Below are positions 42,388 to 57,735 of a stretch of 64,000 nt of DNA, piece by piece. The notes under the pieces are model-generated. The model did not search any database. It was not told where the DNA came from and saw only the letters and a program-made list of their open reading frames with translations. The stretch comes from Bacillota bacterium (GTDB lineage Bacteria > Bacillota > Clostridia > Peptostreptococcales > Anaerovoracaceae), in contig JAFYYP010000010.1 in NCBI GenBank assembly GCA_017557505.1, positions 2,148 through 66,147 on the forward strand, in the 5' to 3' direction. Every line of letters starts with the position of its first letter. Position 1 is the first letter of the stretch. The position numbers and the translations under genes are program-made.

Positions 42388-42956
42388 AGCGCGTCACGTT
42401 CGACCCCTATCGCTGCGATCTCTGCGGCGTCTGCAGCGCCGCTTGTTCGCTTGTCAAGACAGGCAAGTTTGACGCTTCGCAGTCGCGCATCCGCATCGAG
42501 ACCGCGGGCAGCCGCGTGCCTTTAAGGGCCGCCGTCTGCCGTCACTGCGAAGAACCCGCCTGCGTCACGGCCTGCATGCGCGGCATCATCGATCAGGATC
42601 CGCAGACCGGCCTCGTGACCCGCCGCCACGACGGATGCTTCCGCTGCGCGGCCTGCGCGGTCAGCTGTCCGGCAGGCGCCTGCGTGCTGGACGAGGCTCT
42701 GAACGCCTTCACTGCCTGCGACCTGTGCGGCGGCGATCCCCTGTGCGTCAAGGTGTGTCTGACCGGCGCGCTGCGCTTCGAGGACGACGCGGAGAACAGC
42801 GCGCATCTGAGGGCCCTGTACGCGGAAAAGATGTTCGAGGAAAGGGAAGAACTGCCCGGTGAACTGACGGACGCGCAGTGGGAAGAGATCTGCAGCATTC
42901 TCAATGCGGAAGGTCTCTCCGTTGCGCCTGATGAACTGAGGAGGGGATGCAGATGA
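42384..42956 (+). CDS. Second 4Fe-4S ferredoxin-domain protein
   Basis: The start was reassigned to the ATG at 42384, which overlaps the upstream stop (ATGA). CDLCGVCSAAC, CRHCEEPACVTAC, CFRCAACAVSCP and CDLCGGDPLCVKVC. Confidence 0.75.
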   Translation: MKRVTFDPYRCDLCGVCSAACSLVKTGKFDASQSRIRIETAGSRVPLRAAVCRHCEEPACVTACMRGIIDQDPQTGLVTRRHDGCFRCAACAVSCPAGACVLDEALNAFTACDLCGGDPLCVKVCLTGALRFEDDAENSAHLRALYAEKMFEEREELPGELTDAQWEEICSILNAEGLSVAPDELRRGCR

Positions 42957-44266
42957 GAAAAACAGACATCCTGATCCTCGGCAACGGCGCGGCGGGCAGC
43001 AGCGCGGCTTTTGCGGCAAAGCAGACCGCGCCGGAGCTCAACGTTTTGGTTTTAAGCAAAGAGGATGAACCGGTCTATTCCGCTCCCGCTCTGCCGGACC
43101 TGCTGTCCGGCGAACTGACGCGCGCTCAGGTGACCGTCAGCCCGTGGGACGATTACCGTAATGCCGGGATCGAAGCGCTTTGCGCTTCCGCCGTGCGCAT
43201 CGACGCGGGCACCCGCACTGTAATATTGGAAAACGGCGGAGAGGTCTCCTACGGCGAACTCATCCTCGCGACGGGCAGCCAGCCCATCCGGCTGCGGAAG
43301 ATGCAGGGGACAGGTCTCCCCGGCAATTTCGTCATGAAAACGATCGCAGACGTCGAAGACATGGCTGCTTACGGCGGTTCACGGGCTGTCGTCGTCGGTT
43401 CCGGCGCCATAGGCATCGAGGGCAGCATGGCGCTCAAAGCGCGCGGCTTCGAACAGGTGGTCATGGTGGAAGCCCTGGAATGGCTGAGTCCGAAGTCGCT
43501 GGACCGCGCAACGTCTGACGAACTGAAAGCGAAACTGGAATCGTTCGGCGTCAAAGTCCTGACTGGGGAAGCCGTACAGGGCGTGCTGGGAGAGACAAAA
43601 GTCGAAGGCGTCCGCACGGAGAAGCGCGACATTCCCTGCGACCTCATCCTCTGGGGCATCGGTATGCGTCCGGATACGGAGCTTGCGAAAGCCGCCGGCA
43701 TCGAATGCGGTGCTTCCGGCGCGATCCTCACGGACGATCATATGCGCACGAACCTGCCGCACGTTTATGCCTGCGGCGACTGTACGGAATCCGTGGACGT
43801 GTTCAGCGGGCAGCGGGGCGCCTATCTGTTCTGGGAGCCTGCCCGCAGGGGCGGGGCGGCTGCCGGGGTCAACGCGGCGGAGGAAGGACAGGACGTAAGA
43901 CAGGAGAACCGTCCCCGTGTCTTCCTTGGCACAACGCCGTTCTTCCTGACGAACAAGGGCGGCCTTTCCATCCTGGCAATGGGCAGGACGGAGGCGCAGC
44001 TCGCGGAAGGGCGGGGCACCGTTCTGGAAGAAAAAAAAGACGGCGTCTACAGGCGTCTGCTGTTCGAGGACGGAAAACTCGCCGGCGCGCAGATGCTCGG
44101 CACGTTGGAAGATGCTGACCTGTTTGCCGCGCAGATCCGTAAGAACGCAATGCAGCGCGAGGATACCTGGGACCTGACGGAACCGGTTCCGAACCTCGAG
44201 CAACTCAGCCTGCAGGAAGCCGTTTTCTTTCTGCGGAAGCAGAGACGGAACGCGTTCAGTAAATAA
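42947..44266 (+). CDS. FAD-dependent pyridine-nucleotide oxidoreductase (NAD(P)H:ferredoxin/rubredoxin-reductase-like)
   Basis: ILILGNGAAGSSAAF and VVVGSGAIGIEGSMAL dinucleotide folds, plus YACGDC. It overlaps the preceding gene by 10 nt. Confidence 0.85.
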   Translation: MQMRKTDILILGNGAAGSSAAFAAKQTAPELNVLVLSKEDEPVYSAPALPDLLSGELTRAQVTVSPWDDYRNAGIEALCASAVRIDAGTRTVILENGGEVSYGELILATGSQPIRLRKMQGTGLPGNFVMKTIADVEDMAAYGGSRAVVVGSGAIGIEGSMALKARGFEQVVMVEALEWLSPKSLDRATSDELKAKLESFGVKVLTGEAVQGVLGETKVEGVRTEKRDIPCDLILWGIGMRPDTELAKAAGIECGASGAILTDDHMRTNLPHVYACGDCTESVDVFSGQRGAYLFWEPARRGGAAAGVNAAEEGQDVRQENRPRVFLGTTPFFLTNKGGLSILAMGRTEAQLAEGRGTVLEEKKDGVYRRLLFEDGKLAGAQMLGTLEDADLFAAQIRKNAMQREDTWDLTEPVPNLEQLSLQEAVFFLRKQRRNAFSK

Positions 44267-44275
44267 AAAACACAC

Positions 44276-44304
44276 AAAAAGCCGCCCGGGCGGGCGGCTT
44301 TTTT
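44276..44304. terminator. Bidirectional Rho-independent terminator
   Basis: aaaaa-gccgccc-gggc-gggcggc-tttttt, between convergent genes. Confidence 0.75.
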
Positions 44305-44313
44305 CTTTTGACC

Positions 44314-44508
44314 TCAGTTTTCCATGGGTTCGACGATGATGTAATTGTCCATCAGGTCGATCTTCTGCACCTTGGCGTCGATCTTGCGCTGGATGCCCAT
44401 GATGTCCGTCATCACGAGGGTATCGCCTTCGAAGCGGACGTCCGCGATGTTGCGGAACAGCAGGCGGTCGTCGCTGCGGCTGCCGTCATAAACGTTGGAA
44501 AGACACAT
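44314..44508 (-). CDS. cooT: CooT-family small nickel-binding protein
   Basis: A 64-aa protein beginning MCLSNVY, with the invariant Cys2. The size and beta-rich pattern match CooT. Confidence 0.7.
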   Translation of the reverse strand: MCLSNVYDGSRSDDRLLFRNIADVRFEGDTLVMTDIMGIQRKIDAKVQKIDLMDNYIIVEPMEN

Positions 44509-44766: not shown

Positions 44767-44795
44767 TTGATTTAGTAGACAGTTTCCTATAAAAT
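44767..44795 (+). promoter_or_regulatory. Candidate sigma-A promoter of the dehydratase-family operon
   Basis: ttgatt (44767-44772), 17-nt spacer, taaaat (44790-44795), in the only AT-rich gap upstream of 44866. Confidence 0.35.
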
Positions 44796-44865
44796 TATAA
44801 CATAGCGTATTGTGTCCAAAACACACTTTTTCAAATATTTTTCACCTCGTAAAGGAGATGAGTGG

Positions 44866-46059
44866 ATGCGAGACTTAAAACACCTGATCTATTTTGAAGA
44901 TCTTCTGCAGGAGGCTCACAACGAACTGGTCCGCAAGGGCAAGGAAGACGGCAATCTCGCCCTCGGCTACACCTGCTACTTCATGCCGGAAGTGCTGCTG
45001 GACCTTCCCGGCTGCTTCTCTGTCAGACTGCGCGCTCCGCGCTGCGTTTCGCCCGACATGGCGACGTATTACATGTCCGGGCGCACCTGTCACTATGGCC
45101 GCTCCCTGTTCGAGCGTGCCCTCGAAGGCGGCTTCAACTTCCTCGACGCGCAGCTGGCTACCGAGACCTGCACGGTCACGTGCCGCTTCCAGGAACACCT
45201 GAAGGCGATGCCGGATGTCATCAACAACGTGAAGTTCAAGGTTTCGTTCTCCGACGTGCCGTTCAAGAAGAACGAGAACAGCATTGAACACTACGAAAAG
45301 CAGCTGCAGGCGCACGTGCTGGATTTCCTGAAGAGCGAATACGGCGTCGATACGTCCGACGAAGCGATCATGCGCGCGATCATCGCACATAACGAAGTGT
45401 GCCGCATCATCCGCGAGATCGGTGATTTCCGCAAACTGGACGAGCCGACCATCACCGGTTACGAATTCGCGGTCATCAATCTCGTATCCATGTGCTGCCC
45501 GAAGTATCTCATCATCGACAAGCTCAGAGAGACGCTCGAAGAGCTGAAGACGCGCGAACCGGACCAGCGCAAGACCTATCGCTGCAAAGTGCTGCTCGCG
45601 GGTTCCGAGAACGACGACCCCGAGTTCACGAAGCTCATCGAGAGCTGCGGCGCCCTCGTCGTCTGCGACCGCTACTGCTACGGCGCGGTCGAAGCGAGAG
45701 AACCGATCGAGATCCGCGAAGGCGAGACCCCGCTGCGCGCCGTCGCCCGCCACTATCTTCTGACGAGCCAGTGCACGCGCTTCATGGAGCAGGACGAGAT
45801 GCGCTACCGCAAGAAGAGGATCGCCGAACTGGCCAAGGAATACAAGGCGGACGGCGTCATCATCCTGTCCAATAAGTTCTGCGAATACTGGAGCTACGAG
45901 CGCATGATCGATACGATCGTCATTCCCAGGGACTACGGGTTCCCGGTCTGCTCCATCGAGAAAGAATACATCAACTCCGCGTCCGGCCAGCTGCGTACGC
46001 GCTTCCAGGCCTTCGTGGAGAGCATCGAGATCAAGAAACTCCAGGAGGGTGCAAAATGA
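44866..46059 (+). CDS. 2-hydroxyacyl-CoA dehydratase / benzoyl-CoA reductase family subunit (beta-like, set 1)
   Basis: The start was reassigned to the ATG at 44866, after aaaggag. LGYTCYFMPEVLL, ..VCDRYCYG.. and C-terminal SGQLRTRFQAFVESIEIKK. It is a clear paralogue of 50568-51773. Confidence 0.8.
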   Translation: MRDLKHLIYFEDLLQEAHNELVRKGKEDGNLALGYTCYFMPEVLLDLPGCFSVRLRAPRCVSPDMATYYMSGRTCHYGRSLFERALEGGFNFLDAQLATETCTVTCRFQEHLKAMPDVINNVKFKVSFSDVPFKKNENSIEHYEKQLQAHVLDFLKSEYGVDTSDEAIMRAIIAHNEVCRIIREIGDFRKLDEPTITGYEFAVINLVSMCCPKYLIIDKLRETLEELKTREPDQRKTYRCKVLLAGSENDDPEFTKLIESCGALVVCDRYCYGAVEAREPIEIREGETPLRAVARHYLLTSQCTRFMEQDEMRYRKKRIAELAKEYKADGVIILSNKFCEYWSYERMIDTIVIPRDYGFPVCSIEKEYINSASGQLRTRFQAFVESIEIKKLQEGAK

Positions 46060-47663
46060 AGAAGCCCGATTTAAACAAGATCAAGAAACTCGCGAAGGAC
46101 TTCCTCTACGGCAAGCCTCACGGAGAAAGACGCCTCGGCGATCTGTACGAGCCGAAGACCGGTCTCTACAAGCACAGAGAGTGGAGAGGCGTAAAAGATA
46201 CGTTCTATTACTTCAACAACATCTGGCTGTACAACTACGGCATGATGGTCGCCGACATCATGAAGTACGGCGGCCTCATCACGTTCGCGAAGGGCGTGTG
46301 GCGCTACCGCTGGGTAGGCCAATCCTATCTGCCGGTCATGCACTGGTTCGACAGAGGCCTCGAAGGCGTGCGGGGCGAAGCGCTGAGAGCTTCCGCCTGG
46401 CATTACCGCGCCATGGTCAATCAGACGATCGACCAGTTCATGCGCATGTTCAAGGCAGACCAGAACATCGGCGGCAGCAAGGATCTGTACGACCGCACCA
46501 TCGCCCATGACGAAACGGTCTGGGGCGGCGTCTTCTATCCGTACAGAGACCAGCTCGACGATATCCCTCTGCAGATGATCCCGTATTTCGTCACCTGCCA
46601 CGTCAACAACCATACCGTGCTCAACTACATCGACGCGACCCAGGCCCTGGGCCTGCCGGGCGACCCGTGCCCGATGTGCCAGGCGGAATGCGGCCTGATG
46701 ATCCTCGACGACGAGCCGGATTATTATCCCGCCTTCATCACGACGAACGAAGCCTGCGACGCATCCGTTGCGACGTCCGTCATCCAGGACTGGATGATCA
46801 ACAAGCCGCTGTACGCGATGCCGCAGCCGATGCAGTTCGACGACCCGCTCGTGCAGGAGCACTGCGCCAAGGAGATCGAAGGCGCGTTCCGCTTTATCGA
46901 AGAGCAGATGGGCGTCGAATTCCACTGGTCCGAATTGGTCAAGCACCTCGAAGAGCAGAACGAACTGCAGCGCTTCGAGTGGGAGAAGTGGGACGTCGCG
47001 GCCAACACGCCGTACTATCCCATCACCGGCACGGCGCAGGCGCTGTACCGCATCTACCAGAGCCAGCGCGGCAACCGCAAGATCTGGCACGACACCGACA
47101 AGCGGGTCCGCAAGATCCTCGAGAAGTGCGTCGAGCAGAAGATCGAGACGTTCCCGATGACCCGCCACAGAGTCATCGCCTGGTCCTGCGCGCCTCTGTA
47201 TTATTCGCACTGGTGCACCTGGGCCTATAACTGCTGGGGCCTGAACTGCGTCATCAACATGGACTCCCTGATGTTCGACATGACCATCCGCACCGACAAC
47301 TACGACGACATGCTGCTGGATATGGCGCGCTACCACGAATGGGCGCCCATGCGCAGAATGGCCGTCGGCGGCATGCAGCACATCTTCGAGCTGTGGGAGA
47401 ACATGGAGAAGTTCCACTGCGACATGGTCATGATGTACGACCAGCTGCAGTGCAAGGGCATGCAGGGCGTCCACGGCCTGTTCGAGGACGAGTTCCGCGC
47501 CCGCGACATCCACGCGATCTGGATGCCGCACTCGCTGCCCGACAAGCGCACGGTCTCCAGAGCGGAGATCCGCCAGATCATCAACGATTACATGTTCACC
47601 GTCATGCAGGAGGAACCTCTGGATCCCTCCCTGCTGGAATTCGACGACGGCGAAGGCTGGTAA
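46056..47663 (+). CDS. Enlarged 2-hydroxyacyl-CoA dehydratase family subunit (alpha-like, set 1)
   Basis: ATGA overlap with the upstream gene. 535 aa. Conserved Cys contexts GDPCPMCQAECG and NEACDASV. Paralogue of 51774-53771, sharing REWRGxKDTxY and DPSL(L/V)EFDD. Confidence 0.75.
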   Translation: MKKPDLNKIKKLAKDFLYGKPHGERRLGDLYEPKTGLYKHREWRGVKDTFYYFNNIWLYNYGMMVADIMKYGGLITFAKGVWRYRWVGQSYLPVMHWFDRGLEGVRGEALRASAWHYRAMVNQTIDQFMRMFKADQNIGGSKDLYDRTIAHDETVWGGVFYPYRDQLDDIPLQMIPYFVTCHVNNHTVLNYIDATQALGLPGDPCPMCQAECGLMILDDEPDYYPAFITTNEACDASVATSVIQDWMINKPLYAMPQPMQFDDPLVQEHCAKEIEGAFRFIEEQMGVEFHWSELVKHLEEQNELQRFEWEKWDVAANTPYYPITGTAQALYRIYQSQRGNRKIWHDTDKRVRKILEKCVEQKIETFPMTRHRVIAWSCAPLYYSHWCTWAYNCWGLNCVINMDSLMFDMTIRTDNYDDMLLDMARYHEWAPMRRMAVGGMQHIFELWENMEKFHCDMVMMYDQLQCKGMQGVHGLFEDEFRARDIHAIWMPHSLPDKRTVSRAEIRQIINDYMFTVMQEEPLDPSLLEFDDGEGW

Positions 47664-47678
47664 AGGAAGGAACGCGAT

Positions 47679-47882
47679 ATGAAAAAAGCACTGAAAGTTT
47701 TAGGCAAGATCGCCGCAATCGGCGCTGCCGTTTACGCCGCGCTGTTCGCTGTCTTCTATTTCGACCTGGACGGCAAAGCGCTGTTCAAATTCGTGGAGCC
47801 TACGCTGGTCAAGCACTATGACAACATGCCGCGCCGCGACCCGATGAGCCGTCCGTACGGCGACAAGCCCACGAACGAATAA
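47679..47882 (+). CDS. Small single-pass membrane protein (paralogue of 54630-54866)
   Basis: 67 aa with one TM helix IAAIGAAVYAALFAVFYF. It shares LKVLG...YF.(x)LD.K.L with the 78-aa ORF at 54630. Its stop overlaps the htpG start. Confidence 0.55.
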   Translation: MKKALKVLGKIAAIGAAVYAALFAVFYFDLDGKALFKFVEPTLVKHYDNMPRRDPMSRPYGDKPTNE

Positions 47883-49771
47883 TGGAGAAAAGAGAGTTCA
47901 AAGCCGAATCGAGAAGACTGCTCGACCTGATGGTCAACTCGATCTATACGAATAAGGAGATCTTCCTGCGCGAGATCATCTCGAACGCGTCTGACGCCAT
48001 CGACAAACTGTGCCTGATGGCGCTCACGGACCCGTCCATCGGCCTGCGCCGCAGCGACTTCGAGATCACGATCGCGATCGACAAAGAGAATAGGACGCTT
48101 ACCGTTTCCGACAACGGTATCGGCATGAGCGCCGAAGAACTTGAGCAGAATCTCGGCACCATCGCGTTCTCCGGCAGTTCGGAATTCCGTGAACAGCTGC
48201 AGAAAGAACCTTCTGAAAACGCTTCGCAGACCGACATCATCGGCCAGTTCGGCGTGGGATTTTACTCTGCGTTCATGGTGTCCGACCATATCGACGTCGT
48301 CAGCCGCAGGTTCGGAGAAGAGCAGGCGTACCGCTGGAGTTCCGGCGGCGCTGACGGGTTCACGATCGAGCCCGCGGAGCGCGGCACCTGGGGCACGGAC
48401 GTCATCATGCACATCCGCCCGGACGGCGAAGAAAAAGACGAATACAGCCGCTATATGCGCGAATATCCGGTGTACAAACTGGTGAAGAAGTATTCGGATT
48501 ACGTGCGCTTTCCGATCAAGATGCTGCTGCCGAGACCCAAAGAGATGGAAGGCAGCACGCCGGAAGACCCGAAATTCGAAGAGGAGTGGGTGTACGAGAC
48601 GCTCAACTCCATGGTACCGATCTGGAAGCGCCGCAAGACGGAAGTCGAGCCTGAGGAATACGACCGTTTCTATACGGAGACCTACGGCGACCAGAACGTG
48701 CCTCAGACCGTCCTGCCCATATCGGTGGACGGACGCGTCAGCTACGACGCGCTGCTGTACATCCCGTCGAAAGCTCCCGCGGATTACTATTCCGACGAAT
48801 TCCGTCCCGGGCTTTCGCTGTACAGCTCGGGCATTCTGATCATGGAGCGCTGTGAAGAGTTGTTGCCGGAGTATTTCAATTTCGTTCGCGGCGTCGTCGA
48901 TTCGCCCGACCTGTCGCTGAACATCTCCCGCGAGATGCTGCAGCACGACAGGCAGCTGAAACTGATCGGCGAGCACCTCGAAAAGAAGGTGAGGGGCGAG
49001 CTCGAGCGTATGCTGAAGGACGACCGCAAGGCGTACGAACGCTTCTACGGCAACTTCGGCCGCCAGCTGAAGCTGTGCGCGCTCGAGGACTACGGCGCCA
49101 AGCAGGACCTGCTGCAGGATCTGCTGCTGTTCTGGTCCAACACGCAGAACGGCCTGAGCCTGCTGAGCGAATACGTTTCGCGCATGAAGCCCGATCAGAA
49201 ATATATCTACTACGCCTCCGGCGATACTGTTGAGTCTATCGACCGCCTGCCGCAGACGGAAGTCTTAAAGGACGGCGGCTACGAGATCCTGTACTTCAGC
49301 GAAAAGATGGATGAGTTCGTGGCCGACATGTTCCGCAAGTACGCGGACAAGCCGTTCCGCTCCGTGCTGGACGGCGACCTGGGTCTGCCGCCCGCCGAAA
49401 AGAAGGACGAGGCGCTGTACAAGGACGGTCTGGACTTCATCAAGAAGTCGCTGGGAGATAAGGTGGACGAAGTCGTTTCTTCCGCGCGCCTGAAGTCCCA
49501 TCCCGTGTGCCTGTCCAGCGGGGACGGCATCACGTTCGAGATGGAGCGCTATTTCAAGGCGATCGGACAGGAGATGCCCGTCAAGGCGAAACGCATTCTG
49601 GAGGTCAACACGGAACACCCGGCGTTCGCGGCCATCGACCGCACGATGACGGCGAATCCCGAAAAAGCAGCCAAGTACTGCGAAGTGCTGTACAACCAGG
49701 CGCTGCTGATCGCAGGGCTTCCCATCGAGGACCCTAGCGCCTACACGGACCTGCTGTGCAGTCTGTGGTAG
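47882..49771 (+). CDS. htpG: Molecular chaperone HtpG (Hsp90)
   Basis: N-terminal FKAESRRLLDLMVNSIYTNKEIFLREIISNASDAIDKL and GQFGVGFYSAFMV. 629 aa. Confidence 0.95.
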   Translation: MEKREFKAESRRLLDLMVNSIYTNKEIFLREIISNASDAIDKLCLMALTDPSIGLRRSDFEITIAIDKENRTLTVSDNGIGMSAEELEQNLGTIAFSGSSEFREQLQKEPSENASQTDIIGQFGVGFYSAFMVSDHIDVVSRRFGEEQAYRWSSGGADGFTIEPAERGTWGTDVIMHIRPDGEEKDEYSRYMREYPVYKLVKKYSDYVRFPIKMLLPRPKEMEGSTPEDPKFEEEWVYETLNSMVPIWKRRKTEVEPEEYDRFYTETYGDQNVPQTVLPISVDGRVSYDALLYIPSKAPADYYSDEFRPGLSLYSSGILIMERCEELLPEYFNFVRGVVDSPDLSLNISREMLQHDRQLKLIGEHLEKKVRGELERMLKDDRKAYERFYGNFGRQLKLCALEDYGAKQDLLQDLLLFWSNTQNGLSLLSEYVSRMKPDQKYIYYASGDTVESIDRLPQTEVLKDGGYEILYFSEKMDEFVADMFRKYADKPFRSVLDGDLGLPPAEKKDEALYKDGLDFIKKSLGDKVDEVVSSARLKSHPVCLSSGDGITFEMERYFKAIGQEMPVKAKRILEVNTEHPAFAAIDRTMTANPEKAAKYCEVLYNQALLIAGLPIEDPSAYTDLLCSLW

Positions 49772-49787: not shown

Positions 49788-50552
49788 GTGAACGATAAAA
49801 CGATCATCATAGCCGTCTCAGGCAAAGGAGGCGTGGGAAAGACTTCGCTTTCCGCCGCTTTCGTGCGCCTGCTGGCGGAACGCAAACCGGACGCGAAGAT
49901 CCTCGCGATCGACGCGGACCCGGCCATCGGTCTTTCCACGGCGCTCGGCGTCGACGTCAAGACGACGCTCGACGACATCCGCAAGGGCATCGTCACGAGC
50001 GTGGAGGACGGGCGGCCCAAAGAAGCCATCGAGATGCTGTCCGAAGCCCGGTACCGCATCATCGATTCGCTGATCGAGGAGCGGTCGTTTTCCTTCCTGG
50101 CCATCGGACGGCCGGAAGGGGCGGGCTGCTACTGCAAGGTGAATGCCTACCTCAAGGAGGTCATCAGCCTGCTGGCCGGAGACTTCGACTACGTCGTCAT
50201 CGACGGCGAGGCGGGGATCGAACAGATCAACCGCAGGGTCATGGAAAAGGTGACCCACCTGGTGCTCGTCACCGACCCCAGCCGCAAGGGGACCCAAGTC
50301 GTGCAGACCATCAAGAAAGTTGCGGACGAAATGGTGATGTACGAGCGCTGCGGCGCTGTCATCAACAGGGTGTCGGACCCGGACGCCCTGCCATATATCC
50401 ATATCGAGGGCGTGCCCATCCTTGCCGTCGTTCCGGACGACAAGGCGCACGCGACCAACGATATCAAGGGTCTGAGCGTATTCGACCTTCCGCAGGACGC
50501 GCCCGTCATGAAAGGTGCCGCGGAAGCGCTTACAAAACTGGATATTCTGTAA
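49788..50552 (+). CDS. CooC-type (MinD/ParA-fold) metallocentre-maturation ATPase
   Basis: GTG start. Deviant Walker A AVSGKGGVGKTS, DADP, the CooC-type metal motif GAGCYCKVN, and DGEAGIEQ. Confidence 0.8.
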   Translation: MNDKTIIIAVSGKGGVGKTSLSAAFVRLLAERKPDAKILAIDADPAIGLSTALGVDVKTTLDDIRKGIVTSVEDGRPKEAIEMLSEARYRIIDSLIEERSFSFLAIGRPEGAGCYCKVNAYLKEVISLLAGDFDYVVIDGEAGIEQINRRVMEKVTHLVLVTDPSRKGTQVVQTIKKVADEMVMYERCGAVINRVSDPDALPYIHIEGVPILAVVPDDKAHATNDIKGLSVFDLPQDAPVMKGAAEALTKLDIL

Positions 50553-50567
50553 ACCGGGAAGGAGGAT

Positions 50568-51773
50568 TTGCATTTGAAAGATCTGAAGCATCTGATCTAC
50601 TTTGAAGACCTTCTGGAGAATGCGGATAACGAACTCGTCGAGAAGGCGAAGGCCGAAGGGGGCCTTGCCATCGGCTACACCTGCTACCACATTCCCGAAG
50701 TCCTGCTCAACGTAGACAACTGCTTCTCCGTCCGTCTGCGCGCGCCGCGCACGGGATCCATCGACATCGCGACGTACTACATGTCCAACTACACCTGCGA
50801 ATTCGCAAGAGCGCTGGTGGAGAGAGGCATCGAGGGAGGATTCAATTTCCTCGACGGCCTGGCAGGGGTCGACGCGTGCTCGATGATGAACCGCTTTTAC
50901 GAGCACTTCGAGATCCTGAAGATGAACGGGAAGCCAAACTTTTTCGTGACCCACACGGATATGCCGTATAAGATCGAGGATTATACGGTCCGTTCCTACG
51001 TCAAGCAGATGCAGATACGCCTTCTGGACGTGATGCACGAAAGCTACGGCGTGGACGTCTCCGACGCCGCGATCCGCAAGGCGGTCGAAGAGCACAACGA
51101 AGTCTGCCGCATCATCTCCGAAATGAAGGAGATGAGAAAGGCCGACAATCCGGTCATCACAGGTTACGAGTTCCATATCATCAACCTCGTCAGCTACACC
51201 TGTCCGAAGCGGCTCATCCTGCCGTATCTGCGCGAGACGCTCGAAGAGCTGAAGACGCGCGAACCGGACGTCAAGCCGCCGTTCCGCGCCAGAGTAGCGG
51301 TCGTCGGTTCCGAGATCGACGATCCGGGCTTCACGAAGCTGCTGGAGGAATGCGGTGCGCTCGTCGTATCCGACCGGTACTGCTTCGGGTCCACGCCGGG
51401 CAGAGAAGTCATCGAACTGAAAGACGACGAACCGGCGCTCGACCAGATCTGCCGCCGCTACATGGAACTGTCCGAATGCGCGCGCTACATCTCCGACGAG
51501 AAGGTGGCCCAGCGCAGACAGACAGCGGACCGTCTCGCAAGGGAATACAAGGCGGACGGCATCGTGTACGAGCAGATGAAGTACTGCGACTTCTGGGGCT
51601 TCGAAAGAGCGCTCGTCAGCCACATCATGAGCGAAGAGATGGGCTGGCCCGTCCTCTCGATCGACAGAGTGTACAACGCCAAGGCCTCTGGCCAGCTGCG
51701 CACGCGCTTCCAGGCGTTCGTCGAATCTCTGGAGATCAAGAAGATCCATCAGCAGAAAGGAGGAAGGAGCTAA
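50568..51773 (+). CDS. 2-hydroxyacyl-CoA dehydratase / benzoyl-CoA reductase family subunit (beta-like, set 2)
   Basis: TTG start at 50568, or alternatively 50574, after ggaggat. IGYTCYHIPEVLL, VSDRYCFG and SGQLRTRFQAFVESLEIKK. Confidence 0.8.
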   Translation: MHLKDLKHLIYFEDLLENADNELVEKAKAEGGLAIGYTCYHIPEVLLNVDNCFSVRLRAPRTGSIDIATYYMSNYTCEFARALVERGIEGGFNFLDGLAGVDACSMMNRFYEHFEILKMNGKPNFFVTHTDMPYKIEDYTVRSYVKQMQIRLLDVMHESYGVDVSDAAIRKAVEEHNEVCRIISEMKEMRKADNPVITGYEFHIINLVSYTCPKRLILPYLRETLEELKTREPDVKPPFRARVAVVGSEIDDPGFTKLLEECGALVVSDRYCFGSTPGREVIELKDDEPALDQICRRYMELSECARYISDEKVAQRRQTADRLAREYKADGIVYEQMKYCDFWGFERALVSHIMSEEMGWPVLSIDRVYNAKASGQLRTRFQAFVESLEIKKIHQQKGGRS

Positions 51774-53771
51774 ATGGCAGACATCATGAATGCGATCGGC
51801 AAGACGCTGGACCTGGCGAATGACCTGCCCCCTATGCGCATGCCCGACGTGAAAATGCCCAATATCAAATTGCCGAACGTGAACCTTCCGAAAGTGGAAC
51901 TGCCGAAAGTCGACACTTCCAAGGCGAAGGCCGCGGCGGAAAAGCTCCCAAAGTTCTCCGTGCCGAAGTTCTCTCTGCCGAAGTTCGAGAAGAAGGCAAA
52001 GTATCCGAATCCTGCGTTCTTCAAGGCGAAGGACAACATGGACTGGAAGGCCCAGGGCGAAAACCTGAAGGAAGTCGGCGGCATCATCATGCAGCTGTTC
52101 AAGGAAGCGGACTGGAAGGACTTCCTGCTGCGCCAGAAGAATGGCTTTGCAGCTGATTTCGCCCGCGTGAAGAGCGAAGTCGAAGAGCTGTCCGCGATGA
52201 CCCCCGAAGAGCGCAAGGACATCTTCCTCCACGGCGAAAAGCATCTGGGCAAGCTGTACCGCTCCGGCTGCATGGCCACCGTCAGAAGAGAGTGGAGAGG
52301 CGCGAAAGACACCGCCTACGACTTCTACGAATGGCTGCACATGTGGGGCATGCTGCTGGGAACGTTCTCGCACGACCTCGTTCCCGCGCTGAACGCGACG
52401 TTCCACTACCGCTGGATGATCAGCTACATGTGCTGCGTGGGCTTCATGGATAAGAACACGCTCGGCCAGAAGGGCTCCGCCTTGAAGATGAGCCACCTGA
52501 TGATCTACGACATCTTCCGTTACGTAGCGGAGAACCTTGTGTTCCTGGCCAAGTGCGACGAAAAGAACGGCAACAGCAAGGAGCTGAACAAGAAGGTCGT
52601 CCTGTTCGACGAGATGACCATGGGTCAGATCATGGCGGGCTTCCCGGACCTGCTGGGCATTCCGTACCAGCTGATGCCGGTGTTCCTCGTCTCCGAGATC
52701 GACCAGCTCACCTGCGTTCCCTACATCGACGCCGTCGAATCGTTCGGCCTGCCGGCGGATACCTGCCCGGTTCCGTCCTCCGAATGCGGCGCGCTGGTGC
52801 TGGATGCGCTGCCCCACATGGGCGCGTGCTTCATTTCCAGCTCCATGCCGTGCGACGGCTCCGTCATGGCGTCCTCGTACATGTCCAGACGCTTCCCGGA
52901 CCTGCCGGTGTTCCACCTGACGTTCCCGGTGCGTTACGAGTACGAAGAGACCGTCGAAGACGCAGCCGAAGACATCAAGGCGTGCATTAAGTTCGTGGAA
53001 GAAAAGACCGGCGCCAAGTGGAATTGGGACGCTTACTTCACGAACATGAAGCGGTTCAACGAAGAGACGAAGTACGAGCTCGAGAAGTGGGAAGTCAACA
53101 AGACCCCGTATCCGCAGATCATAGGCCCGGCGTACGAACTGTTCCGCAAGTGGAACTACGAGATGGACGGCGGCTCCGATCCGCGCGTTCCCAAGACGTT
53201 CCGCAAGGTCGACAAGATCATGAAGCAGGCGTACGAGCGCAGGGAAGAGGCGTGGCGCGGCAAGATGAAGTACCGCGGCATCGTCTGGAGCTGCCCGGCT
53301 CACTACTACGCGAACTTCAGCAACTGGATCGCGAACTGCTGGGGCGTGGACATCCTCGTTGAGATGGAGAGCCTGAACTTCACCAAGCCTCTGGAGACCG
53401 AGGACAAGGAACTCGCGCTGCAGGATCTGGCAAGGCTGTACGAACGCATGGTCATGAGACGCCACACGAACGGCGGCTACCGCAACGTCGTGGACGAACT
53501 GTGGCGCCAGTGCGAAGCCTGGAACGTCGAGATCATCATCATGTACCAGAACGTGGCATGCAAGAATATGTCCACGCTGCAGGGCATCCTGGATGAACAG
53601 GCCAGAGACAAAGGCTATCACATGATCTGGCTCGAGCACGACCTGATGGATCCGCGTACGGTATCCCGCAAGTCGATGCGCGCGAAGGTCAACGAATATA
53701 TGAGGACCGTCATGAAGGCGGAACCTGTCGATCCGTCCCTTGTGGAATTCGACGACGAAAACGCTATGTAA
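51774..53771 (+). CDS. Enlarged 2-hydroxyacyl-CoA dehydratase family subunit (alpha-like, set 2) with a repeat-bearing N-terminal extension
   Basis: The start directly follows the upstream stop (TAAATG). 665 aa. Cys contexts ADTCPVPSSECG and SMPCDGSV. C-terminal DPSLVEFDDENAM. Confidence 0.75.
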   Translation: MADIMNAIGKTLDLANDLPPMRMPDVKMPNIKLPNVNLPKVELPKVDTSKAKAAAEKLPKFSVPKFSLPKFEKKAKYPNPAFFKAKDNMDWKAQGENLKEVGGIIMQLFKEADWKDFLLRQKNGFAADFARVKSEVEELSAMTPEERKDIFLHGEKHLGKLYRSGCMATVRREWRGAKDTAYDFYEWLHMWGMLLGTFSHDLVPALNATFHYRWMISYMCCVGFMDKNTLGQKGSALKMSHLMIYDIFRYVAENLVFLAKCDEKNGNSKELNKKVVLFDEMTMGQIMAGFPDLLGIPYQLMPVFLVSEIDQLTCVPYIDAVESFGLPADTCPVPSSECGALVLDALPHMGACFISSSMPCDGSVMASSYMSRRFPDLPVFHLTFPVRYEYEETVEDAAEDIKACIKFVEEKTGAKWNWDAYFTNMKRFNEETKYELEKWEVNKTPYPQIIGPAYELFRKWNYEMDGGSDPRVPKTFRKVDKIMKQAYERREEAWRGKMKYRGIVWSCPAHYYANFSNWIANCWGVDILVEMESLNFTKPLETEDKELALQDLARLYERMVMRRHTNGGYRNVVDELWRQCEAWNVEIIIMYQNVACKNMSTLQGILDEQARDKGYHMIWLEHDLMDPRTVSRKSMRAKVNEYMRTVMKAEPVDPSLVEFDDENAM

Positions 53772-53819
53772 GCAAGGGCGGAAAGCCCATATCAGAGAAT
53801 AGAAAAGGAGAAATAGAAA

Positions 53820-54617
53820 ATGAAATATTTTGGCGGATGCGACGTAGGTTCCACCTATACCAAGGCAGTCATCCTCGATGAAAACGGCAATATCTGCGCA
53901 GATACGACCATCAAGAGCAAGATCAACGCGGAGCAGTCCGCGAAGATCGCGATGGAAGAAGTCCTGAACAAGGTGGGTCTGAAGTCCTCCGAAGATCTGG
54001 AATACCTGATCGGTACCGGCTACGGCCGCAACAAGGTTCCCTTCGCTGACGAGAACATCTCCGAGATCTCCTGCCACGCGATGGGCGTGCACGTCACCGA
54101 TCCGACCGTCAAGGCGATCATCGACATCGGCGGCCAGGACGTCAAGGGTATCAGCGTCGACACCGACGGCACCGTGAAGAACTTCGCGATGAACGACAAG
54201 TGCGCCGCAGGCACGGGCCGCTTCTACGAAGCGATGGCCAGAGGTTTCGAGATGACCCTTCCCGAATTCTCCAACCTCAGCCTGAACGCGAAGAACGTCA
54301 TCCCCATCACCGCGCAGTGCACGGTATTTGCCGAATCTGAAGTCATCACCCTGGTAGGCGAAGGCAAGCCCATGGACGAGATCGCGGCCGGCATCCAGAT
54401 GGCTGTCGCCAAGAGATGTTTCGTCATGGCCAAGAAGGCCGGCGCCACCGACAGCATCACCCTGACCGGCGGCTGCGCGAAGAACGCAGGACTGAAGCAG
54501 GCCATCGAGCACGTTCTGAAGCTGAAGGTCATCGACCTGAAGACCGACCCGCAGCTGATGGGCGCTCTGGGCGCAGCGGAATATGCCCGCCAGAAGGGAC
54601 TCGCAAAACTGCAGTAA
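53820..54617 (+). CDS. Acyl-CoA dehydratase activase (HgdC/BcrAD_BadFG ATPase)
   Basis: GCDVGSTYTKAV, EISCHAMG, IDIGGQDVK, MNDKCAAGTGRF and QCTVFAESEVI. Both cluster-bridging Cys contexts are present. Confidence 0.9.
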   Translation: MKYFGGCDVGSTYTKAVILDENGNICADTTIKSKINAEQSAKIAMEEVLNKVGLKSSEDLEYLIGTGYGRNKVPFADENISEISCHAMGVHVTDPTVKAIIDIGGQDVKGISVDTDGTVKNFAMNDKCAAGTGRFYEAMARGFEMTLPEFSNLSLNAKNVIPITAQCTVFAESEVITLVGEGKPMDEIAAGIQMAVAKRCFVMAKKAGATDSITLTGGCAKNAGLKQAIEHVLKLKVIDLKTDPQLMGALGAAEYARQKGLAKLQ

Positions 54618-54629
54618 AGGAGACCTCCC

Positions 54630-54866
54630 ATGACATTTCTTGAGAGAAGAGCCTTGAAAAAGGCCAAGAAAAAGGAAAAGGCCAGGAAGAAGGCCCGCAG
54701 ACAGGCGATCCTGAAGGTATCCGGCACGCTGCTGAAGGTGCTGGGTGCCGTCACAGGCGTGCTGTTTATCGTGTACTTCTGGAACCTGGACCAGAAGCTT
54801 CTGGGCTGGTCCTACGTTCAGGTGAACAAGATCTTCGACCGCAAGGAAGCGGACATCAAGTTCTAA
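54630..54866 (+). CDS. Small single-pass membrane protein (paralogue of 47679-47882)
   Basis: 78 aa. Highly basic N-terminus KKAKKKEKARKKARR and TM helix LKVLGAVTGVLFIVYFW. Confidence 0.55.
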   Translation: MTFLERRALKKAKKKEKARKKARRQAILKVSGTLLKVLGAVTGVLFIVYFWNLDQKLLGWSYVQVNKIFDRKEADIKF

Positions 54867-54867
54867 G

Positions 54868-55605
54868 ATGCAGCTATACGATACCATCATCCGGGATACG
54901 CTGGCCGCGTTATTTTCCCGGCCTTCCAGAAGCTATGCGTACGCGCAGGGCAGGGCCTGGAAAGATACCGGTGCCAGCGAACTCGTGATGCAGCGCGACG
55001 CGGCGTACGAGCTGGGCGGAGACGACAAGCCCGCCGTCAATTTCTCGTGCGTCACGACGGACGCGTCCTTTGTGGACAAAGACGAGATCGTGGTCATCGG
55101 AAAAGACCTGGGCGAGATCGGCTCGTCCGTTCCGTTCGCCCGCCTGGCGTTCGTCCTCATCGACGACATCAAGGTGGAAGAAGGGGATACGGAGCCGCTG
55201 TTCCGGGCCATCCAGGACATCGATTTCGTGAAGTACCACGTCTTTCCGGAAGGCTATATGGTGCGCACGTCCTCGGAAAACAACCGCGAGCAGGTGCGCA
55301 TCAGCAAGAAGGCAAAGCAGGCCGGCATCAGCTTCGAACGCGTCGGCTGCGACTACATCGCGCAGTACAAGCGTGACCCGAACATCCGCGCGGTCAAACT
55401 GGTGTTCGTCACCGACCCGTCTGTGGATTACAAGAAGTTGGCGGCGGACGCAAAGACCGTACACGACATTACGCTCACGCTCTCGAAGATCCTCGAGGGC
55501 ATGCCCACAGACTGCAATTCCTGCAACCTCAAGCCGATCTGCGACGAGGTGGAGGGCATGAAAGAACTGCACTTCGGACAGAACAAAGCTGAATTCAGAA
55601 GTTAA
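54868..55605 (+). CDS. Hypothetical protein resembling the central domain of acetyl-CoA synthase (AcsB/CdhC), with a C-terminal CxxCx5C motif
   Basis: 245 aa. The stretch ..DEIVVIGKDLGEIGSSVPFARLAFVLID...FVKYHVFPEGYMVRT...QVRISKKAKQAGISFERVG..IRAVKLVFVTDP.. parallels, from memory, the AcsB middle domain. The protein ends DCNSCNLKPICDEVEG. Confidence 0.5.
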   Translation: MQLYDTIIRDTLAALFSRPSRSYAYAQGRAWKDTGASELVMQRDAAYELGGDDKPAVNFSCVTTDASFVDKDEIVVIGKDLGEIGSSVPFARLAFVLIDDIKVEEGDTEPLFRAIQDIDFVKYHVFPEGYMVRTSSENNREQVRISKKAKQAGISFERVGCDYIAQYKRDPNIRAVKLVFVTDPSVDYKKLAADAKTVHDITLTLSKILEGMPTDCNSCNLKPICDEVEGMKELHFGQNKAEFRS

Positions 55606-55614
55606 GGAGAAACT

Positions 55615-57675
55615 ATGGATAAGAAATTCGAACCCCTATTTACCCCGTGGAAGATCCGCAACGTCGAGATCCCGAACCGCATCGTCCAGCCTTCCATGGG
55701 CGGCACGTCGCTGTTCGGCTGGCTCGAACCCTGCCACTTCGACAAGGAGGCTGCTTACCACATCCTGAACCGCGCGCAGAACAACGTCGGCCTGGTGCTG
55801 CCGGGCATGCAGTGCGTGCGCGATACCATGGGCAAGCGCTGGCTGTATACGAACAAGCAGATGTTCAAGGATCTGTCCAAGTGGATGCCCGAATTCGACG
55901 CGACCGGCTCCAAGCTGTTCGTCCAGCTGGCCGGCGGTTTCGGCCGCTCCATGGCCATCAACCAAATGATGGTCGACATGCTGGAAAAGCCGGCGTTCGG
56001 CAAGGTCGCCAAACCCTTCCTGGACGTCGAATACTGCTGCGCTTCCGCTTCGGAGACGCCCAACCGCTGGTATCCGTCCCTGAAGTCCCGTCCGATGACC
56101 GTCGAAGAGATCCATGAGATGGTCGACGCGTTCGGCAAGACCGCGTATCTGCTGCAGCAGGCAGGCGTGCACGGCGTCGAGATCCACGCCGTACACGAAG
56201 GCTACCTGCTCGACCAGTTCACGATCGCGAACTGGAACTACCGTACCGACGAATACGGCGGATCCTTCGAGAACCGCTATCGCTTCCCGGTGGAGATCGT
56301 CCAGGCGATCAAGAAGCAGTGCGGAGACGACTTCCCCGTATCGCTGCGCTACTCCGTCGTTTCCAAGACGAAGGGCTTCGGCGAAGGTGCCGTTCCCGGC
56401 GAGGAATTCGAGGAATTCGGCCGCGACATGGAAGAATCCGAAAAAGCCATCAAGTACCTCGGCGACGCGGGCTACGACATGTTCAACTGCGACAACGGCA
56501 CGTACGACGCCTGGTACTGGGCACATCCGCCCGTATACATGCCGCATAACTGCAACCTGCCCGAAGTCGAGCACATCAAGAACTTCACGGACAAACCCGT
56601 CGTGTGCGCGGGTAAGATGACCATGGACGTCGCGGCGGAAGAGATCGCTGCTGGCAGACTGGATGCTGTCGGCGTTGCCCGTCAGAACCTCGTAGACCCC
56701 GAATGGGTCAACAAGATCCTCGAGGGCAGAGAAGACGAGATCAAGCCGTGCATCAACTGCCACAACGCCTGCTTCTCGTTCAGCAAGTCTAAGAGCACGC
56801 CGAACATGCAGAGCCTCGACGACTCGCTGCACCTCGCGCGCTGCGCGCTCACCCCGTCCACGATGCAGCACAACAAGTACAAGATCGTCCCGACGAAGCA
56901 CCCGAAGAAGGTCGCGATCATCGGCGGCGGCATCGGCGGCATGGAAGCTGCGCTCGTGCTGAAGAAGCGCGGCCACGAGCCCGTCATCTTCGAGAAGAGC
57001 GACAAGCTCGGCGGCATGTACATCTATGCGTCCGAGATGTCCTTCAAGGAAGCGGACAAGGCGTTGCTGAGATGGTACGACAGAGAGCTGAAGAAGTACG
57101 ATATCGAAGTGCGCTACAATATGGAGATCAACGCGCCGCAGACGCTGAGAAGAGAGTTCGACGAAGTGCTCGTCGCGACCGGCGCTGCACCCAAGACGCT
57201 TCCCGTCAAGGGCTTCCACAAGTGCCTCACCTTCAAGGAACTGCTCCTCAAGGAGAAGGATGCCGGCGACAAGATCGTGTTCTTCGGCGGCGGTCAGTCC
57301 TCATGCGAAGCGGCTTACGAGATGGTGCTGCAGGGCAAGCATCCGATGATCGTTGAATTCGCGGACGACCTGATCGTCACGCCGGGCACCTGCCTCGCGA
57401 ACTCCTCGTTCCTCAGAGACATGCTGAAGTTCAAGAACGTACCCGTTTATCTGGAGCACACCATCACCGAGATCGGCGACGGCTACGTCATGGTCAAGCC
57501 CAATAACGGCGAACCGTTCAAACTGGAGTGCGACAGCGTCGTATCCGGTATCGGCTTCGTTCCCGCTCCCGTTGCGGCGGACGACAGGAAGGTAAAGCGC
57601 ATCGGCACCTGCGAGAAGTGGGGCAACCTGCGCGACGTCATCTGGTCCGCCTGGGACGTGTGCATGAAGATCTGA
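55615..57675 (+). CDS. Old-yellow-enzyme-type FMN / 4Fe-4S / FAD-NAD(P) oxidoreductase (2-enoate reductase / 2,4-dienoyl-CoA reductase family)
   Basis: OYE core (VEIHAVHEGYLLDQF, RTDEYGGSFENRYRF), Cys motif CINCHNAC, and a second dinucleotide fold VAIIGGGIGGMEAA. 686 aa. Confidence 0.9.
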   Translation: MDKKFEPLFTPWKIRNVEIPNRIVQPSMGGTSLFGWLEPCHFDKEAAYHILNRAQNNVGLVLPGMQCVRDTMGKRWLYTNKQMFKDLSKWMPEFDATGSKLFVQLAGGFGRSMAINQMMVDMLEKPAFGKVAKPFLDVEYCCASASETPNRWYPSLKSRPMTVEEIHEMVDAFGKTAYLLQQAGVHGVEIHAVHEGYLLDQFTIANWNYRTDEYGGSFENRYRFPVEIVQAIKKQCGDDFPVSLRYSVVSKTKGFGEGAVPGEEFEEFGRDMEESEKAIKYLGDAGYDMFNCDNGTYDAWYWAHPPVYMPHNCNLPEVEHIKNFTDKPVVCAGKMTMDVAAEEIAAGRLDAVGVARQNLVDPEWVNKILEGREDEIKPCINCHNACFSFSKSKSTPNMQSLDDSLHLARCALTPSTMQHNKYKIVPTKHPKKVAIIGGGIGGMEAALVLKKRGHEPVIFEKSDKLGGMYIYASEMSFKEADKALLRWYDRELKKYDIEVRYNMEINAPQTLRREFDEVLVATGAAPKTLPVKGFHKCLTFKELLLKEKDAGDKIVFFGGGQSSCEAAYEMVLQGKHPMIVEFADDLIVTPGTCLANSSFLRDMLKFKNVPVYLEHTITEIGDGYVMVKPNNGEPFKLECDSVVSGIGFVPAPVAADDRKVKRIGTCEKWGNLRDVIWSAWDVCMKI

Positions 57676-57704
57676 TCTTCGAACATATTACGGAAATAAA
57701 AAAG

Positions 57705-57735
57705 GGCCTCTGCAGTTCTGCAGAGGCCTTTTCAT
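57705..57735. terminator. Bidirectional Rho-independent terminator
   Basis: An 11-bp perfect stem ggcctctgcag/ctgcagaggcc with a tt loop, an A-tract upstream and a T-tract downstream. It sits between convergent genes. Confidence 0.8.

Follow-up and report, generated by a model that had tools for sequence, protein, structure and literature searches.

ATP-activated Fe-S radical enzymes carry out some of the hardest anaerobic reductions and dehydrations. They are abundant in gut microbes, and most of them have no known substrate. Among the closest described systems are the class I benzoyl-CoA reductases (BCR; BzdNO/BzdPQ), the 2-hydroxyacyl-CoA dehydratases (HAD; HadBC/HadI), and the double-cubane cluster proteins (DCCP/DCCP-R). 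No nickel or CooC requirement is known in the BCR/HAD/double-cubane family, and no dedicated maturation system for ATP-activated Fe-S radical enzymes was found in literature searches. Other described systems are those of CooC and AcsF, which serve nickel insertion into the C-cluster of carbon monoxide dehydrogenase (CODH) and the A-cluster of acetyl-CoA synthase (ACS). Parts of both kinds stand together in a 64-kb stretch of DNA from a Bacillota bacterium (contig JAFYYP010000010.1 of assembly GCA_017557505.1, positions 2,148 to 66,147; the whole stretch is called the window in the following). One operon of the window encodes a small protein, here called the CdhC-like protein, that is homologous to the middle (A2) domain of ACS, together with a CooC-type ATPase and enzymes of the HGD-D family. 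A widespread HGD-D subgroup comes with parts typical of CODH/ACS nickel-cluster assembly, namely CooC, CooT, and an ACS domain.

The homology was examined by four methods. PF03598 (CdhC) matches the CdhC-like protein with 31.2 bits (gathering score 24, E 2.3e-7), and residues 38-184 align to profile positions 12-152; the current model has 155 positions, as Pfam has since shortened it to the CATH 3.30.1650.10 domain. Three NCBIfam ACS models place the same stretch at positions 308-458 (approximately) of the bifunctional ACS or 17-166 of archaeal CdhC, with scores far under the equivalog cut-offs. A single-sequence search of the PDB gave nothing relevant, and ACS was reached only by a family profile. 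This profile of 27 members matched 13 distinct PDB sequences, all of them ACS (E 1e-4 to 1e-2), in the region of Moorella AcsB residues 337-483. The comparison by hhalign with an alignment of ACS sequences, which were fragments and not full-length ACS, gave 94.5% probability (E 7.5e-8, 163 columns). Finally, an AlphaFold2 model of the protein was obtained with a mean pLDDT of 80.4 and a pTM of 0.80, low confidence being limited to the part beyond residue ~210. The top 22 PDB chains found with this model by Foldseek are all ACS/CdhC (E 5e-11 to 4e-6) from Moorella, Carboxydothermus, C. autoethanogenum, and Methanosarcina, and the next match has an E value of 0.46. The profile matches and the structural matches are significant and specific, and the CdhC-like protein is homologous to the ACS A2 domain.

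The initial annotation had likened the protein to the central domain of ACS by eye. Each of its motifs reappears in the hidden Markov model alignment to Moorella AcsB 337-483: DEIVVIGKDL on GKIEVIGPDI, FVKYHVFPEGY on FINY---GEGL, QVRISKKAKQAGISFERVG on WLRVSKDAVAKGFRFKNYG, and VKLVFVTDP on VQVTIFTDE (CdhC-like protein first). Compared with A2 of AcsB/CdhC (Moorella 1oao/1mjg, about residues 313-478; CATH 3.30.1650.10), the protein has the same fold and sequence homology over about 150-200 residues. The two have in common a (D/G)xIxVxGxD strand, a GxG loop, the R-(V/I)-S-K start of a helix, and a V-x-(V/I)-F-(T)-D strand. The match is restricted to the middle domain and the next helix, in agreement with the description of the protein as stand-alone and devoid of an A-cluster domain.

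The open reading frame (ORF) starts with ATG, and this start codon is supported by the N-terminus M(Q/E)LY(D/N), which is kept in all homologues. The ratio of nonsynonymous to synonymous substitution rates (dN/dS) is 0.057 and 0.123 against orthologues of 93% and 84% identity. Thus, the plus frame is translated and under purifying selection. A 220-aa antisense ORF inside the gene was rejected as coding, since the dN/dS values fit the plus frame and the family matches are on the sense strand. A collection of 5.8 billion sequences contains 2680 homologues at E <= 1e-3; the best 120 of them are 201-331 aa long, nearly all 240-247. The family forms 739 clusters at 50% identity and is present in at least 585 GTDB species genomes, mostly of Oscillospiraceae, Anaerovoracaceae/Mogibacterium, Lachnospiraceae, and Eubacteriaceae of the rumen and gut. 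Eubacterium limosum (WP_133968790.1, 'hypothetical protein') and Enterocloster lavalensis are among the cultured carriers. One might argue that the resemblance to ACS arose by chance, or that the gene is a functionless, decaying ACS fragment, given the empty single-sequence PDB search and the modest Pfam E-value. However, Pfam, PDB profile, Foldseek, and hhalign agree on A2, the dN/dS values of 0.06-0.12 are low, and thousands of full-length homologues keep a constant length, invariant motifs, and synteny. Chance resemblance was therefore rejected, and I give this explanation practically no credence.

In sequence and Pfam searches, the CdhC-like protein was found to be devoid of A1, A3, and the Cys-Gly-Cys, and PF19436 gave no match. 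As had been predicted, it stops before the Cys-Gly-Cys nickel site: the chain ends 20 residues past the CNSCNLKPIC sequence. By the features that define ACS, it is not an ACS. No gene for CODH, the ACS A3 domain, a corrinoid Fe-S protein (CoFeSP), or a methyltransferase was found in the 64-kb window, and no CODH, CoFeSP, or methyltransferase was found in the gene module described below or in the annotated related loci. Unlike ACS, the CdhC-like protein is never beside CODH or CoFeSP genes in the loci examined. These facts bear on the idea of a miniature catalytic ACS-like enzyme, whose Ni-Fe-S site would do carbonyl, methyl, or thioester chemistry. The ACS ancestry, the nickel-chaperone-type neighbours, and a Cys motif at the position where the A-cluster starts would suit such an enzyme, but A3 is wholly missing, and with it the spacing of a fourth cluster Cys and the Cys-Gly-Cys that ligates nickel, and the module has no CODH, CoFeSP, or methyltransferase. 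I consider a miniature ACS very improbable.

What follows the A2-like part is a long helix after the last A2 strand (VFVTD) and then D215-C216-x2-C219-x5-C225-DEVEG-x4-H235. The ACS fragments have the same strand and helix, followed by SC-x2-C-x8-C-x9-C. Thus, both proteins have a helix and then a CxxC, which in ACS is the position of the first two A-cluster cysteines, but ACS has four Cys with x2/x8/x9 spacing plus the Cys-Gly-Cys, whereas the CdhC-like protein has three Cys with x5 spacing. The [4Fe-4S] ligands of the Moorella A-cluster are Cys506, Cys509, Cys518, and Cys528. With this numbering, the first Cys lies 34 residues past the conserved T-D in the CdhC-like protein and 37 residues past it in Moorella. 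When hhalign was forced to extend, C216/C219 fell on the SCxxC of ACS and C225 on GLCG, without confidence. The tail alone, used as a profile against the PDB, found no ACS match; it found only designed coiled coils and, at E 0.64, a weak resemblance to the C-terminal motif of Cas4 that does not amount to homology. The earlier comparison of CNSCNLKPIC with the start of the A-cluster is accordingly borne out for position only: the CxxC stands at the distance of Moorella Cys506/Cys509, but the tail by itself does not lead to ACS. Judged by sequence, the Cys motif appears to be positionally equivalent to the start of the A-cluster loop, and homology of the two is not proven.

The conservation of the tail was assessed in 106 full-length representatives, which are 24-53% identical to the protein of the window. 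The conservation is 98-99% for C216, C219, and C225, 89% for D215, and 83% for H235. C61 is seemingly conserved in close relatives, yet it is present in only 17% of the representatives. Therefore, any Cys-ligated site has three Cys per chain. Elsewhere in the protein, E48-L49-G50, G78, G129, M131, R133, E141, R144, and G160 are near-invariant. In the AlphaFold model the Cys tail is left disordered and of low confidence; a disordered tail with invariant Cys is typical of a site that may depend on a ligand or a partner. One candidate function of this tail is that of a low-potential Fe-S electron carrier, in which the three Cys would hold a [4Fe-4S] cluster that supplies electrons to the activase or the double-cubane subunit, and CooC would do no more than assemble this cluster. 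C-x2-C-x5-C with a remote or non-Cys ligand is a known [4Fe-4S] pattern, as in the 'iron staple' of Cas4/AddB and the EndoIII loop, and the Cas4 look-alike would be a faint echo of it; the equivalent position in ACS starts the [4Fe-4S] part of the A-cluster; and a [FeFe]-hydrogenase-like gene stands beside the CooC-CdhC-like pair in six loci. For the predicted cluster, the candidate fourth ligands are H235, D215, and H207 (54%). Against a carrier, only three Cys are conserved, and in some family members the total number of Cys is three. Nor is the fold ferredoxin-like. Known activases take electrons from ordinary ferredoxin or flavodoxin, and no CooC-type protein is known to build plain [4Fe-4S] clusters. 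An electron carrier is thus an improbable explanation in my estimation.

Is the association with CooC and HGD-D genes common? Related loci were surveyed by tblastn with the window proteins. A total of 92 loci were fetched, and the counts given here refer to non-redundant loci with enough upstream flank. In 47 of the 49 loci, a CooC-type ATPase is encoded on the same strand, upstream of the CdhC-like gene and within 5.6 kb of it. The co-occurrence with HGD-D genes is tight (42/49; the BzdN-like subunit in 39/49 and the BzdO-like subunit in 40/49). Directly upstream of the CdhC-like gene, the activase was found in 61/68 loci and the small membrane protein in 60/77, the latter being undercounted owing to the short query. 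The order of the module is CooC, BzdN-like, BzdO/HadB-like, activase, small membrane protein, and CdhC-like, which is almost always last. CooT is present in 12 loci, in 8 of them directly downstream of the CdhC-like gene. Members with only 31-34% identity keep the order CooC, HGD-D, HGD-D, activase, (small), CdhC-like, and their metabolic neighbours differ, including genes for an electron transfer flavoprotein, aldehyde ferredoxin oxidoreductases (AFOR/WOR2), PduP/PduL/iron-dependent alcohol dehydrogenase-like proteins, and a sulfatase. A reduced form, CooC-activase-(small)-CdhC-like, occurs in four loci (L020, L064, L068, and L074). A bare CooC-CdhC-like bicistron with no HGD-D gene within +/-10 kb occurs in six loci (L062, L066, L067, L077, L079, and L083), whose other neighbours are unrelated. 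Twenty loci have two or three HGD-D pairs, and these always have one CdhC-like gene, one CooC gene, and one or two activase genes. In such multi-pair loci, each HGD-D pair has its own small membrane protein.

The module was compared with the described systems. It shares with BzdNO/BzdPQ, HadBC/HadI, and DCCP/DCCP-R a six-ligand BzdN-like subunit, a three-Cys O/alpha-type subunit, and an ASKHA activase. Four further conserved components set it apart from class I BCR, HAD, and DCCP: CooC and the CdhC-like protein, together with a small membrane protein and in many cases HtpG or CooT. As in CooC/AcsF systems, a CxC ATPase is encoded and co-evolves with an ACS-derived protein, and CooT is often present. 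Unlike in those systems, the putative client is not CODH/ACS, and the partner lacks the nickel site that AcsF fills. The initial annotation saw here a re-use of CODH/ACS parts outside the Wood-Ljungdahl pathway. The absence of CODH, ACS A3, and CoFeSP from the window agrees with this, but the family is also found in a true acetogen, E. limosum. Therefore, the family is independent of the Wood-Ljungdahl pathway and not restricted to organisms lacking it.

Co-evolution was analysed by a mirror-tree approach with 37 loci holding all five larger genes. The distances of the CdhC-like protein correlate best with those of CooC (r 0.94). When the other three proteins were regressed out, the partial correlation of this pair was 0.70-0.76 in four analysis variants, the top of the ten pairs. 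The two HGD-D subunits (HGD2a and HGD2b) reached 0.53-0.61; they serve as a positive control, because such subunits are known as heterodimers from characterised relatives. In 2000 permutations of the labels, the CdhC-like/CooC value was never reached (maximum 0.28). The partial correlation of the CdhC-like protein with HGD2b is -0.17. The CooC gene opens the module and the CdhC-like gene closes it, so that the signal is not explained by simple adjacency. In mean pairwise distance, the CdhC-like protein (0.37) exceeds the two HGD-D subunits (0.21) and the activase (0.08), which is 88-98% identical across loci.

I tentatively favour, at somewhat less than even confidence, the reading that the CdhC-like protein is not a catalytic ACS but serves maturation or activation as a shared factor, in partnership with the CooC-type ATPase. 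The protein is a free-standing ACS A2 descendant that has kept the linker helix and a Cys3(His) loop where ACS begins its A-cluster. Together with the CooC-type ATPase, and often CooT, it may mature or (re)activate the metal centres of the adjacent BzdNO-like enzymes. The A2-like body would be a docking platform, and the Cys3(His) tail would hold a metal or Fe-S unit that is loaded or handed over by the ATPase. I infer the metal binding, the metal (Ni, Fe-S, or Zn), and the direction and target of transfer. An analogy may be the CooC paralogue AcsF servicing ACS; Gregg et al. are said to have reported in 2016 that AcsF acts on ACS.

Several observations count for such an accessory factor: the pairing with CooC in 47/49 loci, which persists without HGD-D genes, the leading co-evolution with CooC, and the presence of nickel-chaperone-type genes (the clustering of CooT and the invariant CxC of CooC). 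The only Cys invariant across the family are those of D-C-x2-C-x5-C, with the His at 83%, and the gene evolves faster than the catalytic genes; both points were counted in the same sense. Loci with two or three enzyme pairs but a single CdhC-like and a single CooC gene show the pattern that goes with a service factor shared by the pairs. The maintenance of the module at 31-34% identity beside differing metabolic genes fits a generic service function and not substrate specificity.

Alternatively, the CdhC-like protein might be a stoichiometric subunit of the HGD-D complex that keeps the job of A2: it would bind the CoA/nucleotide moiety of a thioester substrate or cofactor, or be the docking site of a redox partner, and in this way present it to the BzdO-like active-site subunit, perhaps tethered to the membrane by the co-translated small protein. 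The characterised relatives of the adjacent enzymes (BCR, HAD) act on CoA thioesters, ACS A2 docks the Fe-S domain of CoFeSP, and the best-conserved motifs of the family (GxG-loop...R-x-S-K) presumably lie in the CoA region. ACS A2 carries most of the acetyl-CoA contacts, with the adenine on Trp405 and the diphosphate facing a Lys/Arg patch (10.1101/2024.08.05.606187). This Trp405 of C. autoethanogenum, which stacks on the adenine of acetyl-CoA (10.1101/2024.08.05.606187), is the counterpart of Moorella Trp418. In hand-counted positions, Trp418 aligns to the invariant R133 with moderate confidence in a gapped loop, and Arg429 of the shared R-(V/I)-S-K aligns to the invariant R144. Against a subunit, the adenine-stacking Trp of A2 appears not to be kept in the family, which has Arg133 instead. 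The spacing of one nucleotide between the stop codon of the small membrane protein and the start codon of the CdhC-like ORF would suit a subunit. On the other hand, there is a single CdhC-like copy per locus even beside two or three enzyme pairs, it stays with CooC where no HGD-D gene is nearby, it co-evolves with CooC and not with HGD2b, and the subunit role leaves the invariant Cys3 tail unexplained. A structural subunit is unlikely, I think, but it is the main rival.

Several points weigh against the maturation factor that I favour. The strongest motif in common with ACS, R-(V/I)-S-K and the preceding loop, would presumably lie in the CoA-binding region of A2. This placement has indirect support (10.1101/2024.08.05.606187) and favours a ligand-binding role. 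The translational coupling with the small membrane protein also fits a structural subunit. E. coli with a plasmid carrying bzdNO only yielded BzdNO with its clusters assembled (PMC11971306). Therefore, this enzyme family does not in general need a dedicated maturase. The target enzymes have no evident nickel site, and a search of the window and four related loci revealed neither a NiCo nor another metal riboswitch. An ABC transporter at 28-35 kb looks like an oligopeptide system of the Opp4 type and not like NikABCDE; it lends no support to nickel. In addition, recombinational replacement of the inner module genes could partly contribute to the co-evolution signal. A further option is that CooC, CooT, and the CdhC-like protein form an insertion system for nickel or another heterometal, whose client would be the BzdO-like subunit or the Cys3-His tail. 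This would mean a new Ni-Fe-S enzyme class on a BCR/HAD scaffold, widespread in gut and rumen Bacillota. The divergent BzdO-like subunit, with an extra invariant Cys and a His beside its [4Fe-4S] site, was cited in its favour. I regard this option as doubtful.

If the CdhC-like protein and its partners are maturases, they would stand for an assembly pathway not described before, perhaps with a new cofactor. A ligand-binding subunit would instead show the recycling of a CoA-binding module from one of the oldest enzymes. E. limosum is genetically tractable and carries the module directly downstream of WOR2, which makes the role directly testable.

The features of the window are listed in Table 1. 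The CdhC-like gene belongs to one 13-kb unit of eleven plus-strand genes, bounded by bidirectional terminators and a promoter-like site at 44767-44803. The order of the unit is HGD-D pair 1, the 67-aa protein, HtpG, CooC, HGD-D pair 2, the activase, the 78-aa protein, the CdhC-like protein, and FadH/OYE. The last gene is not a conserved part of the module.

Table 1. Features of the operon and its borders in the 64-kb window (positions count from the first nucleotide of the window)
Feature	Position	Strand	Evidence or remark
Strong bidirectional terminator, upstream side	44276-44303		
CooT (nickel-binding CODH accessory family)	44314-44508	-	PF10133 E 3.5e-16 over full profile; N-terminal Met-Cys
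HGD-D pair 1 (415 aa, double-cubane type; 535 aa) and 67-aa membrane protein	44812-47882	+	
HtpG (Hsp90) inside the operon, between the two enzyme pairs	47882-49771	+	
CooC/AcsF-type P-loop ATPase with Cys-x-Cys metal motif (GAGCYC)	49788-50552	+	
BzdN-like HGD-D subunit (401 aa) with all six [8Fe-9S] double-cubane Cys ligands	50568-51773	+	
Divergent HGD-D active-site-type subunit (BzdO/MbdO/HadB-like), 665 aa	51774-53771	+	PF06050 E 3e-36
HgdC/BcrAD-type ATP-dependent activase	53820-54617	+	PF01869 E 8e-57; TIGR00241 217 bits (cut-off 125)
Single-helix small membrane protein, 78 aa	54630-54866	+	Paralogue of the 67-aa protein at 47679-47882
CdhC-like (ACS A2-like) stand-alone protein, 245 aa	54868-55605	+	PF03598, PDB profile, Foldseek, dN/dS, 2680 homologues
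A2-homologous core, residues 38-184	54979-55419	+	Pfam and PDB-profile alignments
Candidate metal/cluster-binding C-terminal motif D215-C216-x2-C219-x5-C225-DEVEG-x4-H235	55510-55572	+	Conservation among 106 representatives
FadH/OYE-type Fe-S flavoenzyme, last gene of the unit	55615-57675	+	
Strong bidirectional terminator closing the unit	57701-57732	.	

The two nickel-chaperone-type neighbours named in the initial annotation were both recovered. The ATPase of the same operon has CooC1 (3kje) as its closest PDB relative (E 2.7e-16), and their CxC motifs are aligned. Its Walker A motif is the deviant GKGGVGKT, and the AGCYC sequence is invariant in 50/50 orthologues. CooT is divergently encoded about 10 kb upstream of the CdhC-like gene, across the promoter region of the eleven-gene unit. 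The sequence begins with MC; thus, the N-terminal Cys2 nickel ligand of the family is kept.

The 401-aa subunit has BzdN (8s02) as its top PDB match (E 1.5e-25). The [8Fe-9S] double-cubane ligands of BzdN are Cys36, Cys73, Cys100, Cys263, Cys293, and Cys327 (PMC11971306). C39, C77, C104, C272, C304, and C340 of the 401-aa subunit align to these residues in this order and are invariant in 54/54 sequences. The NF040772 double_cubane model matches the subunit with an E value of 2e-40, under its cut-off. A core profile of the 665-aa subunit found DCCP (6e-12), MbdO (2e-9), HadB (1e-8), and BzdO (2e-7) in the PDB. Its invariant Cys residues are C331, C360, C522, and C596. They comprise the three canonical cluster Cys and a fourth, C522 (in N-C-W-G, approximately nt 53337-53339), which is absent from the aligned MbdO and DCCP. 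The subunit is very divergent. His622 is mostly conserved. The N-terminal extension (residues ~19-75, approximately nt 51828-52000) contains short repeats of (K/N)(L/M/V)P(K/N/D)(V/F). Its length varies, and the orthologues are 512-665 aa in total.

The 67-aa and 78-aa membrane proteins share Y-F-x-(L/N)-D-x-K after the helix and are 42% identical over 31 residues. Neither of them gave a significant Pfam match. Possibly they anchor this enzyme subgroup to the membrane, as a subunit that has gone unrecognised. HtpG is present in 31/86 related loci; an Hsp90 in such an operon is unusual, a conserved link between a chaperone and a metalloenzyme module. A 1690-aa ORF on the minus strand (49818-54890) was rejected as a gene, since the sense genes are strong family matches and it has no family match itself. 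It spans five consecutive plus-strand genes, from CooC to the 78-aa protein, which are all in the same frame (coordinate mod 3 = 0). This antisense frame presumably stays open through avoidance of codons complementary to stops.

There is no NCBIfam model specific for the CdhC-like family. Its members are labelled 'carbon monoxide dehydrogenase' in NCBI, 'CO-methylating acetyl-CoA synthase' in UniRef, or 'hypothetical protein'. The CODH/ACS names are over-annotations and can inflate metagenomic counts of genes for CO metabolism and acetogenesis. The one trace found in the literature is a record of the 3.30.1650.10 part of PF03598 occurring by itself (Genome Biol 2015, PMC4443539; UniProt B8FZT4). 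These stand-alone 'partial domain' proteins represent the same domain on its own, but the entry is domain bookkeeping only, without a family definition, motif, gene context, or function. The searchable literature gave no report of a family definition, the invariant Cys3 tail, the pairing with CooC, or the six-gene double-cubane module. Thus, the domain is known and its stand-alone occurrence is in databases; what is new is an ACS-derived putative accessory protein in a BCR/HAD-type system. Domain fusions among the longer members were rejected, as these have loop insertions or are a probable assembly chimera. In the 331-aa P0022, the first ~100 residues of the family are partially repeated as an internal tandem duplication. 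The 277-aa P0256 has a thiamine-phosphate-synthase-like N-terminus joined to the C-terminal half of the family and is probably an assembly or frameshift chimera, not a real fusion.

A few related loci have neighbours of their own. A 541-aa [FeFe]-hydrogenase-like protein with two Fer4 domains and Fe_hyd_lg_C is encoded in L062 (7382-9007, minus strand), L066, L067, L079, L083, and L010 (1200-2717, plus strand). Its gene stays adjacent to the bare CooC-CdhC-like pair across species while the other synteny decays. In E. limosum-type contigs (L089 692-8717 and L091 1-8717), the module comes directly after wor2S, wor2L, and wor2X, the genes of the tungsten aldehyde oxidoreductase. The cooC and CdhC-like genes of E. 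limosum should correspond to B2M23_RS04630-04640, right behind wor2SLX. For WOR2, the physiological role was reported as unknown (PMC11725836); WOR2 and the module may form one pathway in these contigs. In an Enterocloster lavalensis-type contig (L086 3-10787), an aldehyde dehydrogenase, a PduL-type phosphotransacylase, and an iron-dependent alcohol dehydrogenase are encoded upstream and a 685-aa alkyl-sulfatase-type protein downstream. These neighbours hint that the module enzyme yields an aldehyde in that organism.

In the window, the region upstream of the operon (39613-44266, plus strand), as far as the shared terminator, encodes a molybdopterin oxidoreductase of the dimethyl sulfoxide reductase family, two 4Fe-4S dicluster proteins, and a pyridine-nucleotide-disulfide oxidoreductase with a rubredoxin-reductase C-terminal domain. 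An Fe-S carrier ATPase of the Mrp/NBP35/ApbC type (PF10609, E 2e-84) is encoded at 37830-38651 on the plus strand, about 6 kb before the operon. Near the start of the window, two tandem plus-strand genes (342-7178 and 7450-13488) encode giant proteins of 2278 and 2012 aa with DUF7507 and Listeria-Bacteroides repeats, which are probably cell-surface proteins.

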